The notes below the pieces were generated by a model. It saw only the letters and a program-made list of their open reading frames with translations. It was not told the origin of the DNA and ran no database searches. The position numbers and the translations under genes were made by a program. A stretch of 64,000 bases of DNA, taken from an uncultured Gammaproteobacteria bacterium. GTDB lineage: Bacteria; Patescibacteriota; Patescibacteriia; Magasanikbacterales; GWA2-37-8. This document shows, in pieces, positions 1-9,111 of this stretch. The stretch is from NCBI GenBank assembly GCA_964355175.1, contig CAYHBZ010000001.1:368523-432522 (forward strand), read 5' to 3'. Numbering within the stretch: the stretch's first letter is position 1; each line of letters starts with the position of its first letter.

Positions 1-72
1 CAACGTATGTTCGGTGGCATGAACTAGAGTTTCATCTAAATCTAATACTAATAATTTTTTAAACCTAGGCAT
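1..72 (-). CDS. HAD-superfamily FCP1/NIF-like phosphatase, N-terminal 24 codons only (gene runs off window start)
   Basis: Reverse-complement of 1-72 translates MPRFKKLLVLDLDETLVHATEHTL. The DLDETLVH motif is the catalytic DxDx(T/V) signature of FCP1/NIF-type HAD phosphatases. The start codon is at 70-72. Confidence 0.35.
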   Translation of the reverse strand, partial: MPRFKKLLVLDLDETLVHATEHTL

Positions 73-97
73 ACTGCTTATCAAAATATATAAATTA

Positions 98-604
98 CTA
101 TACCCCCAAAACCCACAGGTCTTGTTTGGTATTTAAGCAACTTTTAGCAATATTAATTAACCCACTATTTATATCTTTAAGTTGCACCAACACTTCTTTC
201 CAATCGTTATCCCAATTAATATTAAAGAAATCACCGACTACATCCATAAACTTAGATTGAGGGGAGGAAATACTATATACATTTGATAAACTAACAAAAT
301 CGTCATATGTATTCACTAAATTTAAATTATTTAAATTTATATTTAATAACTCAATTAAACTAACAATATCTCTTTGTTCATATTTTGTCGGTCCAAAATA
401 ATTAAATTTCGCGTTACTCTTTTCAAAACTATTAGAAAACACATAGCCGTAAATAATATCGTCTAAAAACACAGAATCGCTGTTCCAATGTTGACTTATT
501 TTAGACCAATCTCCGACAAAAAATTCAACATAAGCAGACCCTTTTCTTTCATTATTTTTTACCAATCTTACAGAATTCTTACTCATAAATTTTATTCTCC
601 CCAT
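98..604 (-). CDS. hypothetical protein (168 aa), last gene of the toxin-like locus
   Basis: Intact ORF co-oriented with and 11 nt overlapping the upstream paralog gene. I recognise no family. Confidence 0.45.
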   Translation of the reverse strand: MGRIKFMSKNSVRLVKNNERKGSAYVEFFVGDWSKISQHWNSDSVFLDDIIYGYVFSNSFEKSNAKFNYFGPTKYEQRDIVSLIELLNINLNNLNLVNTYDDFVSLSNVYSISSPQSKFMDVVGDFFNINWDNDWKEVLVQLKDINSGLINIAKSCLNTKQDLWVLGV

Positions 605-1314
605 TTTTTTGGTTCTTTACCAGTTTTATCTTTCCACTCTTTTTCCAATCTTTTCTCCACCAATTCCCAATTCATCTTGTTTGAGCCTCCATTTTCCACA
701 TCTCTGAAATACCATATGCTTGGACCAATTGAAGCGCCATAATACAAAGAATTTTTTGGTGCCTCTTGCCACCGCCACCAATCTCTAATCAATAATTTTT
801 GAATCTCCTCTATTGTAATTATTTTTTCTTCTATAAATGGGTCAAGAAAATTTCTAGCGAACTGTTCATCAATACCAGGAAATATTTTTGCCTGATGCTC
901 CCAAAATACTTCAAAAAGTCGACGAGTTCTAAAACCTTTTGGTAAAATAAATATTAATAAATAAGCAAACTGAATAAAATAAGAAGGATACGGTTTGTAT
1001 GTTTTATAATTTTCTACGGTGTCCGTATTCTCATACCTATTATCATGTTCAAGTAAATAAATAATAAGATCTTCAACTCCTTCTTTACCAAATTCATTAA
1101 GCAAAGTATCAAATAACTCTTGGTGGTTGTCTATAGATATTAAATTTGGGGATATAGAGTCTTCTTTATGAGAACTAATTACTTTGCGATTGCGCATCAA
1201 TGTCCACCTATAAAAATTACCCGTAAAACTCTCTATTTTTTCAGGATCTTCAGTCATCCAATTCAATAAAATATCAAAGGCTTTTTGTAAATCTAATTTT
1301 TTTTGATTAATCAT
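592..1314 (-). CDS. hypothetical protein, tandem paralog A (240 aa); candidate immunity-like protein
   Basis: Shares a ~100-aa identical core (…IDNHQELFDTLLNEFGKEGVEDLIIYLLEHDNRYENTDTVENYKTYKPYPSYFIQFAYLLIFILPKGFRTRRLFEVFWEHQ) with the adjacent ORF at 1307-2002. The termini are divergent. Confidence 0.55.
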   Translation of the reverse strand: MINQKKLDLQKAFDILLNWMTEDPEKIESFTGNFYRWTLMRNRKVISSHKEDSISPNLISIDNHQELFDTLLNEFGKEGVEDLIIYLLEHDNRYENTDTVENYKTYKPYPSYFIQFAYLLIFILPKGFRTRRLFEVFWEHQAKIFPGIDEQFARNFLDPFIEEKIITIEEIQKLLIRDWWRWQEAPKNSLYYGASIGPSIWYFRDVENGGSNKMNWELVEKRLEKEWKDKTGKEPKKWGE

Positions 1315-2002
1315 ATAAAACTAATTTTAAGTAATCGTCACTCCTTGGTTGTTTTTTATATTTGCGATACCAATCTTCAACCAATTGTTTTTCGACTTTT
1401 TTCCATTCGTCAAAACCATAATAAGTTACTATTAGCCAAGGCGAAATCCTACTATCAGCTTCTCCACTACTCTGCCATTTTTGCCACTGTTTTATAATAA
1501 GAGCTTGAATCTCTTCCTTACTAGTTACACCTTCATCTATAAAGGGGTCAAAATACCTACGAACATAGAGCTCATCTACCCCACGACCAATCCTTTCCTG
1601 ATGCTCCCAAAATACTTCAAAAAGTCGACGAGTTCTAAAACCTTTTGGTAAAATAAATATTAATAAATAAGCAAACTGAATAAAATAAGAAGGATACGGT
1701 TTGTATGTTTTATAATTTTCTACGGTGTCCGTATTCTCATACCTATTATCATGTTCAAGTAAATAAATAATAAGATCTTCAACTCCTTCTTTACCAAATT
1801 CATTAAGCAAAGTATCAAATAACTCTTGGTGGTTGTCTATAACAGTGAAACGCGGACTTATTGAATCGCTTTTTCTATCATTTGGCCATTTTCTAAGGTA
1901 ATTTACCCAATTATAAAATTTTTTCCTAAATAATTCTACATAACTAGAATTATTAGTTTTCCAATCCAATAAAATACTGAAGGCTTTTTGTAAATCTAAC
2001 AT
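1307..2002 (-). CDS. hypothetical protein, tandem paralog B (231 aa); candidate immunity-like protein
   Basis: Paralog of 592-1314 with an identical core and divergent N- and C-termini. It lies immediately downstream of the large secreted protein. Confidence 0.55.
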   Translation of the reverse strand: MLDLQKAFSILLDWKTNNSSYVELFRKKFYNWVNYLRKWPNDRKSDSISPRFTVIDNHQELFDTLLNEFGKEGVEDLIIYLLEHDNRYENTDTVENYKTYKPYPSYFIQFAYLLIFILPKGFRTRRLFEVFWEHQERIGRGVDELYVRRYFDPFIDEGVTSKEEIQALIIKQWQKWQSSGEADSRISPWLIVTYYGFDEWKKVEKQLVEDWYRKYKKQPRSDDYLKLVLYD

Positions 2003-2014
2003 AGAAAATAAATA

Positions 2015-5000
2015 CTATTCAAATTTTTTAATCACATCAATTTTAACGCCAGGATATGCACTTTGGATAGTTGATTTAACATCTTCTAAACTCTCGGCAC
2101 TAGGATAAAAATGTCCAGAACTATTATCTATTTCGATCAGATCCTTAGCTTTAAATTTGATAGTACCCGCCGACCTAACATCAGCTCCACCGCTTAATAT
2201 CGGGTGAGGAAACGGCTTATAATTACCGCGCGGAGATATAACCACTTCACCATTTTGTTTTAAAACATATATAATTTCGTCACCTTTTTGTGTTAAACTC
2301 AATAAATAATCATCATTTATTGCTTTCTTCAAACTATAAAATCCATACTGCAAATCGCCTTTTAAATACCCGTCCACTACGGCATTTTTAAGCTGGAAAC
2401 CAGGATAATCAAACGCTTTATTATACCAACTAGCCTCACCGCTACTAATATATTTTTCAAGCACACCAAATATTGGTTTGCCTTCAAATTTTCCTACTTT
2501 AGCAACACCGTTAAGAGTTTCTACGGTATTTTCCGTTACATCACTCAGCTTAGAAATTACTTTCACATCCTCCCCTAATTTATCCATTAATTTTACTTTA
2601 CTAACAGCTTTTAATTTACTCGCTGGAACATAAATTAACAAAATCTCACCTGCTATTTTTCCTCCAACATAGTTTGCTCTTGCCTGGCAACCATTTGGAC
2701 CAATCGAGGTATTATATTCATCTACTAGAGAATTATACGCCGCATTGCCAGAAGATTTTAAGAAATCTATAACATCCTTTTTGCTTATTCCGCTAGCTTT
2801 TTTGGCAATCTCATAGGCCTTATCAGAAGTTTCACCAATATTTATCACCCCTTTTATCAACGGCATTACTAACGAAAAAATATCATCAACTGTTTTTACA
2901 CCAGTATCAAATATACCTTGAACCATTATTAATTCTAAAATAATCGGATTTTTTAGATCTTTATACAACTCACAGCGATACTTCTTGAAAGTCTCAATTA
3001 CAGTAGCACCCGTAGATAAATTCCAACCCACCTCCTGATCATTCTCAAACTCTTGATAAATAACCCCGTTGCGTTTATTTGGATCACCTTCTGGAAAACC
3101 TAAATTTCCACCTGTACCACCATTGGCATTATGCACTTCGGTCAGTTTGCCATAAGTATAATAAATCCACGGCCAAGCCCAGCGTTTATAATAATACATC
3201 TGCCCGTTAACAAAATTTTGGTAAACACCGCTAGTGCCATATTTACTACTAGCCGCACTCGATTCGTCACTTGTAGGAAAACCTACAATTTTTATAATTT
3301 CATTATCATTTTTACCAGCTTTATCCAAAAATCCAGCTTTAAGTCTGTACGCCTGTCCGCTGTTACCATCTGGCACAAAATACACGGTCTCGTAATTACT
3401 GTTGTCACAATTATTCCAACCATTACCAGTACAAATTGGCTGGCGATAAGTACCCAATACACTAGAAAATTTTAAAGTATATTTATTGGTCACGGAACCT
3501 ATATTGTTAATATAAGAACTAAGTTTGTTTTGAACTTCAACTTTAGAGTACCACTTATTATATTTATTTGGACTAAAAAATTTAGCGCCATTGGAAGCTA
3601 ATATATACACATGCTGAACCGAACCAAAATTTACCGTGTCTTTCCAACAAGGAAAACCGTAGGATGAATCCCATCCAGAATTATTTTTAATATAATCATA
3701 CTGCGCCTTGGTTGGGACGCATTGAATAGAATCTACCGAACGCCCGTCTTCATAAGCATAATATTGAGTTGCTTGATCAAATACATAATAATATTTTAAC
3801 ATCTGTGTGATAGTGTCGGTATAAGCCAAATATTGTCCGACCTCTGTAGTATTTCCACCATTCATCTGAGCCTGCTCCCCGATAGCATAGGTACCAGTAC
3901 CGTCAGAAGAGAGCGAGACATACAATATACCCGTCCATACTCCATCGGTGATAGCTTTGTCTGGAGTGACCACTGTATTGCCGGCTTGCACATCTGTGTG
4001 CATATTTTGTTTGGTGTTGGCCGTCAAATTTAACGTGTCAATAATATTTTCATTTGTTTTGGTAATATTATGCACGATATAATCGCTAAGATGCGCGTAA
4101 GCATATTGCAAACCTTTCACTGTAGAAATACCTTTCAGACCAGTAATATCATTAAAAATTTGTCCTTCATAATATGACGCGTCCAAACCCCAGAGCAAAC
4201 GAAAATCTTTGCGATGATTATTAAAAATACCGCGATTGGACCAGTCATTGATATACGATGAAGCATCTATAGTGAGACCTTTGAAATCAAAAGTGGTAGG
4301 CGTACCGTCTATGGAAGATAAAATTCTGTTTTGAGTCACTACCGCGCGTGTGAACACGGTATTGCGACGATAGTCCAATGCTTTTTCCAGAGTATCACCG
4401 GTCTCTTCCAGATGTTGTAAATATTTACTGGCCAAGACGCTGTTGCCTTGCAATAATATTTTAGAATTGGTATCCAAGTTTGGATCTACCTGTACTCTAG
4501 ACAGAGAAACCGCTATGCCTTCGCTATTGCCGGCAATGGAAAACTTTTCATCGGAATATATTTTGGTACCATTTTGAATATAATCAAAACGCAATATCAA
4601 TTGATCGCCTATCTTTATATTATTATCGGTATCATAGTGCGCGTATCCAGCCAACATGTACGGCTTAATATTAACCAAAGCCGCTGGCGTAGCGTGAATA
4701 CCACCATAACTATCTATTACTTGTTTATCGACATCGGTAGCGCCTTCATAGGACAGACTAATCTCCGCGTTGTTTATTTCACTGCCAAAAAATTCATGTT
4801 CAAATACTACACTGTTATCACTTTCTTTAAGTAAAGAAATTTTTACTTGAGCACGATAATTATCCGGAACAGAAGACCAAGCTACTGGCTGAATCAAACT
4901 ACCACCCACATTACCGGTGTGAGTATAATATGGCAAAGTTGGCGGCAATATTTGGAATTCATCAATGACACCAACATTAGCGGATTGAAAACCGGCATTA

Positions 5001-6520
5001 GCTATATCTTTACCAGTAGAATTTTTTAAATCCTGAGAATATTTTTGCAATGGAGACAGCGTTCCGGAATATTGCAAAAATCCATCCCAAAAAATTTGAG
5101 TATTGAAATTGGCGGTATCGTGTACTATTTCATTTTTAGTACGGTTATAAGTTTTCACGACCGCATCAATAGGAATCCACTGTTTTTTGCCATACCCCTG
5201 CAATAGATTTTGGACATCGGCCGTGGTAGTAGCGTTGGCAAAAGATAAAATATTATCAATATTTGCTCCACGTTCATCATAATCATAATACGCTTCCACA
5301 AATACCCATTCCAGACCTAGAGCGGTTTCGTTGGAAAAATCATAGTCCTCGGCTTTGCCATTAAATGTGCCGGCGGATAAAGTGTATACCGGCACTTTAT
5401 TCATAGCCCAAGCCAAATAAGCGGTCTTGAGCTCATCAACACCCAATAAATTTTTTATCTGCTCCACATTCATTTGTACCACACTTTTTTTATAGCGAGC
5501 GGGAATGCCGGCGGCGCGCAACAAAGAAATTGTAAGTGAGCTGGCGTCAAAATCATTACAGACTTTTTCTCTTAGACAACCTAGACTACCTTTTTTCGCG
5601 CCAAAATATGGCTCGTAAGAAATATTCTGACGAACAAAATTTAAAATTTTGACTGGATTATTATTTAGTGAGTTGGCCAAATCCTGAATTTCGCTGTTCA
5701 CCACTACCTCATTATCGGCTTTCACATCGCTGATAGTCGGTAAATATTGGCTATCGGCAGAAACTTGGTCTATTTTAAAGGCCTTATTAAAAATATCTAA
5801 AAGTTTCGGAGCGGGCGGTTCATTTATAGCCCCTTGCAGAGTCTGAATCTTTACTTCATCGGTATTAAATTTAAACTCTGCCGGCTGGGCAGGAATACGA
5901 AATGTTTCACGATCATTAATGTTTGATTTGGAATCTAACCCCAAAATTTCTTTAGTTCTACCCAAGACTCTTTCTATGAAAGTAGGTGTTTCATTCTTTA
6001 ATTTTTTTAATTGTTTATTGAGTAAATCAAAATAGGCTGATTGGTTGCCACTATCCAAATCCAGTTTATCCAAACGATCTTTTTCTGACTGAACAAAACG
6101 CTCAAAATCAGAACTGGAAATTTCTTTGCTTTTATCCAGACCATTCAAACGGCGCATCAAGACAGAATATTCCGGTAATCTTTCTACGACTGGCGTAGAG
6201 GTAACAGCGACCACAGTTTCAGGTGTGACCACGACACTATCAGAAACCGCTTCGGTGTCTATATGGCGCGATTCAACAACCGACTCCGTATCACTAGCCA
6301 CGGTAGTGGAAACAACGAAACTCACATCGCCTATATGGGCTATGGTTGTATCTGAAGATGGAATCTCGACACTTGAAGAAACGGTAGGCTCGATTACATC
6401 CACCAAGCTCAAAGTAGAAGATTCTAGCTCTTGAGCCAAAACCGGAGCAACCGGCATTAAAACCAATTGTAATATTATCAATGAGATGACAGGTTTTAAT
6501 AAGTATTTGGCAATGGACAT
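2015..6520 (-). CDS. large secreted multidomain protein (1501 aa) with a transglutaminase-like cysteine-protease core, an LGFP-type repeat and a C-terminal module of unknown function
   Basis: N-terminal signal peptide (MSIAKYLLKPVISLIILQLVLMPVAPVLAQE) followed by an S/T/V-rich linker. The motif GCLREKVCNDFDASSLTISLLRAAGIPARY matches the transglutaminase-like core signature (C..[FY]A..L...LRA.GIPAR). GNLGFPEGD…GVIYQEF resembles an LGFP repeat. The C-terminal ~120 aa (…HPILSGGADVRSAGTIKF…IDNSSGHFYPS…) is unassigned. Confidence 0.7.
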   Translation of the reverse strand: MSIAKYLLKPVISLIILQLVLMPVAPVLAQELESSTLSLVDVIEPTVSSSVEIPSSDTTIAHIGDVSFVVSTTVASDTESVVESRHIDTEAVSDSVVVTPETVVAVTSTPVVERLPEYSVLMRRLNGLDKSKEISSSDFERFVQSEKDRLDKLDLDSGNQSAYFDLLNKQLKKLKNETPTFIERVLGRTKEILGLDSKSNINDRETFRIPAQPAEFKFNTDEVKIQTLQGAINEPPAPKLLDIFNKAFKIDQVSADSQYLPTISDVKADNEVVVNSEIQDLANSLNNNPVKILNFVRQNISYEPYFGAKKGSLGCLREKVCNDFDASSLTISLLRAAGIPARYKKSVVQMNVEQIKNLLGVDELKTAYLAWAMNKVPVYTLSAGTFNGKAEDYDFSNETALGLEWVFVEAYYDYDERGANIDNILSFANATTTADVQNLLQGYGKKQWIPIDAVVKTYNRTKNEIVHDTANFNTQIFWDGFLQYSGTLSPLQKYSQDLKNSTGKDIANAGFQSANVGVIDEFQILPPTLPYYTHTGNVGGSLIQPVAWSSVPDNYRAQVKISLLKESDNSVVFEHEFFGSEINNAEISLSYEGATDVDKQVIDSYGGIHATPAALVNIKPYMLAGYAHYDTDNNIKIGDQLILRFDYIQNGTKIYSDEKFSIAGNSEGIAVSLSRVQVDPNLDTNSKILLQGNSVLASKYLQHLEETGDTLEKALDYRRNTVFTRAVVTQNRILSSIDGTPTTFDFKGLTIDASSYINDWSNRGIFNNHRKDFRLLWGLDASYYEGQIFNDITGLKGISTVKGLQYAYAHLSDYIVHNITKTNENIIDTLNLTANTKQNMHTDVQAGNTVVTPDKAITDGVWTGILYVSLSSDGTGTYAIGEQAQMNGGNTTEVGQYLAYTDTITQMLKYYYVFDQATQYYAYEDGRSVDSIQCVPTKAQYDYIKNNSGWDSSYGFPCWKDTVNFGSVQHVYILASNGAKFFSPNKYNKWYSKVEVQNKLSSYINNIGSVTNKYTLKFSSVLGTYRQPICTGNGWNNCDNSNYETVYFVPDGNSGQAYRLKAGFLDKAGKNDNEIIKIVGFPTSDESSAASSKYGTSGVYQNFVNGQMYYYKRWAWPWIYYTYGKLTEVHNANGGTGGNLGFPEGDPNKRNGVIYQEFENDQEVGWNLSTGATVIETFKKYRCELYKDLKNPIILELIMVQGIFDTGVKTVDDIFSLVMPLIKGVINIGETSDKAYEIAKKASGISKKDVIDFLKSSGNAAYNSLVDEYNTSIGPNGCQARANYVGGKIAGEILLIYVPASKLKAVSKVKLMDKLGEDVKVISKLSDVTENTVETLNGVAKVGKFEGKPIFGVLEKYISSGEASWYNKAFDYPGFQLKNAVVDGYLKGDLQYGFYSLKKAINDDYLLSLTQKGDEIIYVLKQNGEVVISPRGNYKPFPHPILSGGADVRSAGTIKFKAKDLIEIDNSSGHFYPSAESLEDVKSTIQSAYPGVKIDVIKKFE

Positions 6521-6713
6521 AATATTTAAAAACTTTATTTAAACAAAAAACTCCTCAAACATGAGGAGTTACAAACAAAAATAAACTGAGCCAAAGGCTA
6601 TAATTGGGCAAGTTTTTTCTCTAATTACAGGCATAAATGCCAAAAAATGATTAAAACTATTGCCTATAGCCAACCATATTTTGGCATTGTTGTCAAATAA
6701 AGGCTGAGTAGAG

Positions 6714-6752
6714 GTAAAAAAAACAGTCCTGACTGAGTCAGGACTGTTTTCA
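6714..6752 (-). terminator. rho-independent terminator of groEL
   Basis: Perfect 11-bp stem acagtcctgac/gtcaggactgt with a 3-nt loop. On the minus strand it is followed by a T8 run, 25 nt after the groEL stop. Confidence 0.65.
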
Positions 6753-6776
6753 TAAACAATAATTACAGGACTAGAT

Positions 6777-8426
<1,650 letters not shown>

Positions 8427-8440
8427 TTAATATATTAATT

Positions 8441-8498
8441 GTCATCCCGAACGCAGTGAGGGATCTTGGTAAAGATTCCTCGTTTCACTCGGAATGAC
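8441..8498. repeat. palindromic repeat pair (two 25-nt units, GTCATCCCGAACGCAGTGAGGGATC and GATTCCTCGTTTCACTCGGAATGAC) in the groES-groEL spacer
   Basis: Each unit is a hairpin, and the two units are imperfect inverted copies of each other. Related units occur at 42916-42980, and an exact 25-mer copy at 42411-42435. Confidence 0.6.
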
Positions 8499-8508
8499 AT
8501 TCGTTCAT

Positions 8509-8814
8509 TTATTCAAAAGTGGCTACAATATCGTTTTTATCTTCACCGGATCCTACATATAAAATTTTATAAGTTTCTTCATTGCTACCTTGACCTACTT
8601 TTATTTCTTCGCCTCCCCATTTTTTAAACAATACCTTATCTCCTACCTTCAAACCTAGTCTGACAATCGCTTCACCGTTGCCTACTGCCACTATACTACC
8701 TTCCGCTTTTTTCTCTTTATCGACGGCGGATGGTAACAAAATACCAGAGGCGGTGACTTCCTCTTCTTTGGCTGGTTTTACCACCACTCGATCGCCCAAT
8801 GGCTTGATATTCAT
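8509..8814 (-). CDS. groS: co-chaperonin GroES (10 kDa)
   Basis: 101 aa, MNIKPLGDRVVVKP…, the canonical GroES sequence. Located immediately upstream of groEL. Confidence 0.95.
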   Translation of the reverse strand: MNIKPLGDRVVVKPAKEEEVTASGILLPSAVDKEKKAEGSIVAVGNGEAIVRLGLKVGDKVLFKKWGGEEIKVGQGSNEETYKILYVGSGEDKNDIVATFE

Positions 8815-8836
8815 ACTATGAAATTAAAATATTAAT

Positions 8837-8863
8837 TTTTATCACTCAAATTGTTTGAGTGAT
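8837..8863 (-). promoter_or_regulatory. CIRCE (HrcA operator) inverted repeat upstream of groES
   Basis: TTATCACTC-N9-GAGTGATAA against the consensus TTAGCACTC-N9-GAGTGCTAA. The 9-nt spacer is exact, and the two half-sites carry one symmetric mismatch each. It lies 23 nt upstream of the groES start. Confidence 0.7.
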
Positions 8864-9111
8864 AATTATCATTATTTTAATGGATTTTTATTAAGTTTGT
8901 CAAGATTTAGCAGTTCAAATTTCCACATTTTTTCCACAGTAAAATTTGGCTTACTTAAAACAAAAATCCAGAGTTGGAGACGAACTCTTAGCGCCGTCCA
9001 TATATTGTCCGGACTATGCCTGTCTATGGTGTAGCCCGAAGCTATGGCGAACGCAAGGGTCTGTCCCCAATTCTGGGTTCTTATCTCAGTTCTATAGTTT
9101 GTGTATGGAGT

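Follow-up and report, generated by a model that had tools for sequence, protein, structure and literature searches.

The locus and its parts

The window, by which we mean the whole stretch of 64,000 nucleotides (nt) analyzed here (contig CAYHBZ010000001.1 of assembly GCA_964355175.1, forward-strand positions 368,523 to 432,522), comes from an uncultured bacterium placed by GTDB in the Patescibacteriota, and the subject of this report is a group of genes at its start that probably encodes a secreted polymorphic toxin together with its immunity proteins. Positions 1 to 6520 hold five tightly packed genes in an operon-like arrangement, all on the minus strand, as read from their open reading frames (ORFs). 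A reading made earlier from the letters alone (the sequence-only reading) had listed a large protein, a pair of paralogs of about 235 amino acids (aa), a third ORF and a HAD/FCP1-like phosphatase, and this gene set was recovered by the ORFs and a match to PF03031. The genes, and a tract shared by two of them, are the following:

2015..6520 (including the stop codon), minus strand: putative polymorphic toxin gene, 1501 aa; ORF with 57 full-length-type homologs and mapped homology break-points
1307..2002, minus strand: parA, candidate cognate immunity gene, 231 aa; start 12 nt past the toxin stop codon
592..1314, minus strand: parB, tandem paralog, 240 aa, candidate second or orphan immunity gene; 60% protein identity to parA (E 8e-86), 8-nt overlap with parA
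98..604, minus strand: ORF3, 168 aa, co-oriented; 13-nt overlap with parB, no family match
72..70 (start), running off the window start, minus strand: start of the phosphatase ORF, MPRFKKLLVLDLDETLVH..., first 24 codons
891..1135, minus strand: 245-nt identical block in parB, gene-conversion tract

parA is probably translationally coupled to the toxin gene. A longer contig from this genome (L001; homologous proteins and loci are given here as P and L numbers) holds the phosphatase ORF in full, as a 182-aa NIF/FCP1-like phosphatase of PF03031. ORF3 has no homolog among the downstream genes of related loci and no match in Pfam, NCBIfam or PADLOC. ORF3 and the phosphatase were considered as members of the cassette but not adopted as such, as neither has a conserved counterpart in related loci and nothing found speaks for their membership. 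A PADLOC run on four proteins (toxin, parA, parB and ORF3) gave no defense-system match, and tblastn searches of the whole window with the tip and linker (see below), parA, parB and ORF3 returned no further copies and no orphan tips.

The 1501-aa product can be divided into seven parts, the last of which we call the tip:

6434..6520, minus strand: Sec-type signal peptide, residues 1-29, MSIAKYLLKPVISLIILQLVLMPVAPVLA followed by QE; assigned by eye from the sequence, with no predictor
6191..6433, minus strand: S/T/V-rich stalk of low conservation, about residues 30-110; by composition, mean family identity 5-19%
5141..5662, minus strand: transglutaminase-like domain, residues 287-460, probably inactive; PF01841, E 6e-7
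3299..5140, minus strand: conserved scaffold body, residues 461-1074; by family identity, no Pfam family
3071..3298, minus strand: two LGFP-type repeats closing the scaffold, residues ~1075-1150; Pfam LGFP and family alignment
2417..3070, minus strand: linker or pre-toxin module, residues 1151-1368, of the KKYRCE...DTG type, one of two linker types
2018..2416, minus strand: putative toxin tip domain, residues 1369-1501 (133 residues); by its conserved family motif

Two Pfam models, Transglut_core at residues 287-388 (E 6e-7) and LGFP at residues 1080-1112 (E 3.6e-5), match above their curated cut-offs, while the last ~350 residues have no Pfam match. The signal peptide and S/T-rich stalk named in the sequence-only reading agree with our inspection of the sequence, and the LGFP-type repeat that it had also named is found by Pfam; in the family alignment the motif LG[FY]P...YQxF occurs twice, marking two such repeats. 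Identity of the scaffold body to 56 relatives, averaged per 50 residues, is 39-66% up to residue ~900 and 22-40% thereafter. As to the transglutaminase-like Cys-protease core proposed in the same reading, the domain is present, but an active protease is unlikely: Cys321 is kept in 52/57 homologs and Asp452 in 51/57, no conserved or majority His lies between them in the inspected residues 401-416 and 445-456, and the PF01841 match stops short of the His-bearing strand. Given the lack of a conserved His between Cys321 and Asp452, the domain is probably catalytically inactive. In Sec-dependent polymorphic toxins, N-terminal transglutaminase domains without activity have been described before as anchoring domains (PMC3482391).

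Exchangeable tails and the tip family

A search with the whole protein gave 60 matches, 57 of them full-length-type relatives, mostly from metagenomes of the candidate phyla radiation (CPR); the named ones belong to Magasanikbacteria, Peregrinibacteria, Gracilibacteria and similar CPR lineages, and one is labeled Nitrospirota. In BLAST comparisons with the query, 54 of the 57 relatives align from about residue 110 to about residues 1159-1207 or 1304-1351 and then diverge, with an unaligned tail of 120-450 residues past either end-point. These tails form 12 single-linkage BLAST clusters, and at least 10 unrelated tail types are found on the one scaffold. The tip of the window occurs in a cluster of 10 proteins, EndoU (PF14436) in 8 and NAGPA (PF09992) in 4; AHH (PF14412) and a restriction-endonuclease-like EVKNY type share a cluster in which they were merged solely via a common linker, and several further types carry no precomputed Pfam annotation.

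All tail types part ways just past the second LGFP repeat of the family alignment, and two alternative linker types follow there. Because each linker type is combined with several tip types, the architecture is one of scaffold, linker and tip, with recombination at both joints. The content of guanine and cytosine (GC) is 0.38-0.40 in the scaffold, 0.34-0.35 in linker and tip (0.343 for the linker itself) and 0.29-0.31 in parA, parB and ORF3, with a mean of 0.40 in the rest of the window; this stepwise fall toward the 3' end (window 1-2416) is consistent with a 3' cassette imported by recombination, and the step coincides with the homology boundary between scaffold and linker. Three relatives carry an N-terminal subtilase, and RHS is present only in the two most distant matches, P0059 and P0060. 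A 2.1-kb contig labeled as a Pseudomonadales metagenome-assembled genome (L021, JAGRJA010000252.1) holds the C-terminal end of a scaffold (LGFP-end motif, linker and tip) with an immunity candidate. It was not counted as evidence across phyla, its ORF opening with the LGFP-end motif of the CPR scaffold, and its bin assignment is probably wrong.

The C-terminal module, which the sequence-only reading had described as distinct and could not assign, has indeed no Pfam, NCBIfam or solved match. Pfam and NCBIfam searches with the isolated C-terminus gave sub-threshold noise only (ArlS_N, DsbC_N), 46 isolated tips compared with Pfam at E<=10 yielded no common family, and the tip profiles A1 and A3 found no solved relative among the Protein Data Bank (PDB) sequences. 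A word-index homolog search with the tip alone returned no matches, the domain being too divergent for shared 5-mers. An alignment of ten scaffold relatives sharing the tip (A1) has the invariant residues F, E1415, K1421, G, R1431, P, H1439, A, G, G and H1470, and an exhaustive profile search with it reached 1813 cluster representatives at E<=1e-3. Their conserved core spans about 85 residues, lies in most carriers no more than 25 residues from the C-terminus, and follows the motif [IV]x[FY]V[ML]DxxG ... H[HP][ST]xLxxGxxVxxAG ... IxNxSGH[YF]xP. The tail cluster of P0004/17/18/37 also belongs to this superfamily, as a divergent branch (E 5e-11 to 2.5e-7), and the superfamily as a whole is found on 14 of the 54 scaffolds.

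Outside the scaffold family, a Pfam scan of 53 carriers revealed Tox-PAAR-like and PT-TG in three proteins each, RHS, eCIS_core and PT-HINT in two each, and TPS and DUF6531 in one each, with no model covering the tip itself. The superfamily also exists as short standalone proteins. Look-ups of cluster names gave only 'hypothetical protein'. In tblastn searches of plasmids, the tip was found at the extreme C-terminus of a Listeria innocua plasmid LXG protein (WP_077915344.1) and of a Janthinobacterium lividum Rhs protein (WP_176386534.1), both assigned to the superfamily by hidden Markov model (HMM) with E ~1e-20. Each of these tips is then followed by a gene for a hypothetical protein of 133-137 aa, within 20 nt or with a 4-nt overlap; the delivery modules are wholly different from that of the window (LXG of the type VII secretion system and an Rhs cage), and the candidate immunity proteins are unrelated to parA/parB. 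No structural or wall-binding domain was recognized in the C-terminal module, which instead ends proteins of the Tox-PAAR-like, RHS, PT-HINT, PT-TG, TPS, eCIS and LXG kinds. By sequence profile, the tip is a member of a large superfamily in toxin position for which Pfam has no model. The literature searched, which omits most subscription journals, held no description of this family, no characterized tip among the LXG and Rhs carriers, and nothing relevant on CPR polymorphic toxins or the tip motifs.

Some carriers, with P0075/P0227, P0079, P0094, P0086 and P0088 as the proteins examined, depart from a single intact tip. In proteins of up to ~4000 aa, 2-4 tandem copies recur near the C-terminus with a period of 200-320 residues. 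P0075 has filamentous-haemagglutinin repeats (Pfam), and its units 2-4 keep the intact motif while unit 1 reads SDSY instead of SGHY. In signal-less tip proteins of 400-800 aa, S[END]HY stands in place of SGH.

Downstream genes and surroundings

Downstream proteins were compared across the loci fetched for relatives of the scaffold or the tip; scans of metagenomes and genomes for further parA or tip loci led mostly back to this set. In L004, L008 and L015/16, too, this tip subtype has a member of the parA family directly behind it. The tips of the window, of P0002 (96% identical), of the L015/16 fragment (65%) and of P0008 (46%) are followed immediately 3' by the parA/parB family, and the tips paired with this family share 45-96% identity among themselves. 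The tips of P0006 and L020, 90% identical to each other, go with a 167-aa Zn-ribbon protein, those of P0012 and L021 with a family of 166-183 aa (E 2e-15 between members), those of P0005 and P0033 with a family of 237-247 aa (E 1e-26), and that of P0030 with a 481-aa WG-repeat protein. Four tip subtypes are thus each paired with a recurrent downstream family. In the syntenic ortholog P0003 from a related genome, with groES-groEL likewise upstream, the scaffold is 67% identical, the tip is of the EndoU type and the downstream gene, of 133 aa, is an unrelated one. The C-terminus is hence swapped among at least ten tail types and the adjacent downstream gene changes with the tip, as the co-variation proposed in the sequence-only reading would have it; judged from these loci, the tip subtype predicts the downstream family, though not perfectly.

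In the P0033 locus we identified an orphan module (L025:10997-12031, P0135), in which a degenerate tip, with the conserved His changed to Gln and the SGH motif lost, is joined in one reading frame with a further copy of the immunity family of that locus. In the window the immunity candidate is duplicated, as parB, and no orphan tip is present. A distant relationship between parA and the immunity family of P0005/P0033 (L006_5382, L025_9919) was considered and rejected (HMM E 0.29, hhalign E 0.14).

Neither parA nor parB matches a family in Pfam, NCBIfam or PADLOC, including the known Pfam immunity families (Imm1-73, SUKH, SuFu), and the other candidate immunity proteins are likewise without an assigned family. 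The predicted model of parA is all-alpha and HEAT-like, and the family is rare, with nine matches among 5.8 billion proteins.

The two paralogs named in the sequence-only reading are confirmed as such, with one amendment: over 245 nt (891-1135 in parB, 1597-1841 in parA) their nucleotide sequences are identical throughout, between flanks that are only ~50% identical. The tandem of a parA-like and a parB-like gene is kept in a related genome (L013/L014), where the central block is again identical within the genome but different from the block of the window. Identity within and difference between genomes point to concerted evolution by gene conversion. The tract also explains why contigs end inside parA/parB in several public assemblies (L002-L005, L013/L014) and how the chimeric entry P0063, with the N-terminal half of parA and the C-terminal half of parB, could arise; the locus is prone to mis-assembly. 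With its tract, the pair illustrates clearly, on a small scale, how members of an immunity array evolve in concert.

At four independent loci of same-family toxins, a Pol-beta-type nucleotidyltransferase and/or HD-domain gene was observed one or two genes downstream (L006:4535-5341, L007:13211-13774, L015:1152-2597 as a fusion, and L020:4828-5493). Such genes are absent from the window, where ORF3 and the NIF/FCP1-like phosphatase are found instead; they could have an accessory or repair function or form an unrelated toxin-antitoxin-like module.

The neighbors of the cassette are groES/groEL and small genes. Beyond the phosphatase, L001 encodes a membrane protein of 219 aa and then a protein with PKD repeats that is more than 2283 aa long. 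In most related loci, a gene for a giant surface protein (1500 to >2300 aa, with PKD, CARDB or Laminin_G domains) lies just past the variable cassette (L001:10731-17563, L013:2734-9264, L011:13371-16650, L009:13376-20347), often preceded by a small RDD-domain membrane protein, so that the toxin cassette is bordered by groESL on one side and a conserved gene for a surface protein on the other. The intergenic leader of 256 nt that separates groEL from the toxin gene (window 6521-6776, minus strand) is strongly structured, with a minimum free energy of -71 kcal/mol and a z-score of -6.0. It reveals two terminator-like hairpins, one just past groEL and the other at 6570-6549, 28 nt ahead of the toxin ATG; the second hairpin, together with a TTGACA box, is nearly identical in L004 and L011, whose toxins are 67-78% identical to that of the window. 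Rfam gave no credible match on window 1-9000, the leader included. It could control the toxin operon in the role of an attenuator, leader or small RNA.

Interpretation and comparison with known systems

The locus shows the hallmarks of a polymorphic toxin in the sense of Zhang et al. 2012: an N-terminal trafficking signal (by inspection), a variable C-terminus (54 homologs, 12 tail clusters), a tip that recurs on other scaffolds and standalone, and a downstream gene that co-varies with it. We consider, with a probability of roughly 0.8, that the locus as a whole encodes a polymorphic toxin exported by the Sec route, together with its immunity cassette, in a bacterium of the CPR/Patescibacteria type; that it is a toxin/immunity system of some kind, as the sequence-only reading had concluded, appears very probable from the exchange of tails, the tip family in toxin position and the co-variation of the downstream genes.

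The proposed mechanism would be as follows. Signal peptide, stalk, inactive transglutaminase-like domain, body of ~700 residues and LGFP repeats would constitute a surface-display scaffold, with display via the transglutaminase domain and the LGFP repeats, and past residue ~1150 it is followed by two exchangeable modules, the linker or pre-toxin (1151-1368) and the tip (1369-1501). The tip would be released or delivered into a neighboring cell, be it a competitor or the host bacterium of an epibiont, and act in the cytoplasm, while parA, a signal-less protein with a predicted all-alpha helical-repeat fold, would bind and neutralize it in the producer. parB would be a tandem duplicate partly homogenized with parA by gene conversion, whose diverged N- and C-terminal thirds may cover a variant tip, or which may act together with parA.

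The closest described relatives are the Sec-dependent inactive-transglutaminase toxins (Zhang, de Souza, Anantharaman, Iyer & Aravind 2012, PMC3482391), which, like the window protein, begin with a signal peptide and a transglutaminase-like domain without a full triad, continue with a long region for presentation and end in a variable toxin, next to whose gene lies a small one for immunity. The subtilase of some scaffold relatives adds to this likeness, since subtilase is among the processing proteases listed for that class (PMC3482391). The examples given there, however, present their toxins on an RHS filament, whereas the family of the window, found mainly in CPR lineages, has no RHS but a ~700-residue body without a Pfam family and two LGFP repeats. 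With no RHS_repeat match in Pfam, the 1501-aa protein does not qualify as an Rhs/YD-repeat toxin, and the locus is neither an LXG nor a CdiA system. Features shared with CdiA/CdiI are a large surface-displayed exoprotein, a sharp demarcation after a conserved motif, an immunity gene directly downstream and orphan modules (here that of L025). The demarcation, however, follows the LGFP repeat and not VENN, the window has duplicated immunity genes without an orphan tip, and Pfam finds neither a TPS nor a Fil_haemagg match; a CdiB partner is likewise missing.

Several observations weigh against parts of the proposal. Some giant TPS/FHA-type proteins contain 2-4 internal copies of a tip of this superfamily in tandem, an unusual pattern for an enzymatic toxin that sits at the terminus, and the SGH motif is degenerate in signal-less proteins with multiple tip copies. 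parA contains a hydrophobic stretch (SYFIQFAYLLIFIL) that may reflect either a helix buried in the fold or an association with the membrane. The tip of P0005 is nearer to that of the window (54%) than is the tip of P0008 (46%), yet it is paired with another immunity family, so that tip similarity and immunity family are not strictly congruent. We know of no mechanism by which a CPR cell would deliver such a toxin. The link of the tip to the phosphatase PHPT1 (see below) would be purely structural: the profile searches of PDB sequences did not retrieve PHPT1, and the Pfam scan of 46 tips at E<=10 gave no match to PF05005.

A different view of the whole protein, as an adhesin on the surface of an epibiotic CPR cell or a means of attachment to its host, with a variable C-terminus that sets binding specificity and with the small genes as unrelated island genes or helpers in export or assembly, could draw on the S/T-rich stalk, the inactive transglutaminase domain and the LGFP repeats, on the giant PKD-repeat surface proteins encoded nearby, on the weak scores of the tip fold against binding domains of the gelsolin/ADF type, and on the tandem internal repeats of the tip in some giant exoproteins. 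We regard it as highly improbable, however, because the alternative C-termini of this scaffold include the established toxin domains EndoU and AHH, the tip follows Rhs core, LXG, PAAR-like and PT-HINT modules that precede toxins in known systems, the downstream genes co-vary with the tip and not with the scaffold, and a near-invariant His and the SGH motif suggest catalysis. Co-variation would be equally expected if parA and parB were tip-specific chaperones or adaptors that keep the toxin competent for export, with immunity encoded elsewhere or unneeded, and helical repeats, the predicted fold, serve generically for binding proteins. This role seems quite improbable for a toxin that carries an ordinary signal peptide for Sec export and is not flanked by dedicated secretion genes; moreover, the site directly behind the toxin gene, the duplication in tandem and the orphan module of L025 match the pattern of immunity genes (PMC3482391).

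The chemistry of the tip is the weakest step of the proposal. An AlphaFold2 model of the tip reached a mean confidence (predicted local distance difference test, pLDDT) of 82.8, and Foldseek found no match for it in the PDB at E<0.02; gelsolin/ADF matches with template-modeling (TM) scores of ~0.3 were set aside as generic alpha/beta similarity. We aligned 160 tip sequences with the single sequence of PHPT1 by hhalign and took the result, which is not significant (E 0.62), for its alignment path alone, on which H1439 falls on His53 of PHPT1 and SGHYxP on SMAYGP. His53 is the catalytic base of PHPT1, an enzyme able to dephosphorylate bacterial CheA (PMC11277029). Both the path and the catalytic role of His53 are the reason why a His-dependent phosphoesterase or phosphoramidase is favored. 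The tip would then be an enzyme with a His-centered, anion-binding active site on a PHPT1-like beta-beta-alpha-beta-beta-alpha-beta fold, with H1439 at the N-terminus of helix 1 and the NxSGH(1470)[FY]xP loop ahead of helix 2, and may act as a phosphoesterase or phosphoramidase on a phosphorylated protein, nucleotide or nucleic acid. That the tip is a His-dependent enzyme with such a modeled fold has, in our view, an even chance of being right; that it is specifically a phosphohistidine or phosphoramidate phosphatase is unlikely. PHPT1 is a eukaryotic housekeeping enzyme and not a toxin. Its His102 has no aligned counterpart in the tip, no sequence relationship between the tip and the PHPT1/Janus family (PDB 2nmm, 2ai6; PF05005) is detectable, and membership of the tip in that family is not established. 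A PHPT1-like toxin, or a toxin with such a phosphatase chemistry, was not found in the literature searched.

The main rival with regard to the chemistry leaves the polymorphic toxin as described and takes the tip for a metal-independent nuclease, most likely an RNase. H1439 and H1470 would then serve as general acid and base, and the likeness to the PHPT1 fold would be due to convergence or have no bearing. Nucleases are found among the sister tips of this scaffold (EndoU, AHH and the restriction-endonuclease-like type), most polymorphic toxin domains are reported to be nucleases (PMC3482391), E, K, R, H and H are invariant in the close subfamily, as is typical of RNase active sites, and the immunity candidates have no signal peptide, which fits a cytoplasmic target. 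A two-histidine RNase of this kind is a possibility that we hold only tentatively, against the His-dependent phosphoesterase or phosphoramidase suggested by the PHPT1 path.

Members of the CPR/Patescibacteria have tiny genomes and depend on other cells, and to our knowledge it is largely unknown how they antagonize competitors or hosts. The locus suggests that they keep a dedicated, recombining polymorphic-toxin scaffold with at least 10 warheads that can be exchanged for one another, among them EndoU, AHH, restriction-endonuclease-like and NAGPA types, and with immunity genes to match. The warhead family of the window, as delimited by its sequences, appears to be new to Pfam, NCBIfam and the literature searched, and with 1813 cluster representatives, including LXG toxins on Listeria plasmids, it would be among the more widespread toxin tips. 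The predicted likeness of the modeled tip to phosphohistidine phosphatase may point to a specific new toxin chemistry. In its widest form, the idea is that the tip founds a new interbacterial toxin superfamily of PHPT1-like phosphohistidine or phosphoramidate phosphatases, with at least 1800 clusters on Rhs, LXG, PAAR-like, CdiA-like, eCIS and CPR scaffolds, and in this form we find it rather improbable. If it were true, target cells would be killed or disarmed by dephosphorylation of His-phosphorylated proteins, such as two-component kinases, EI and HPr of the phosphotransferase system, nucleoside diphosphate kinase and succinyl-CoA synthetase, and CPR epibionts could silence the signaling of their hosts with a phosphatase tip. 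The arrangement of scaffold, exchangeable tip and immunity gene could serve as a genomic mark of contact-dependent antagonism across the CPR.

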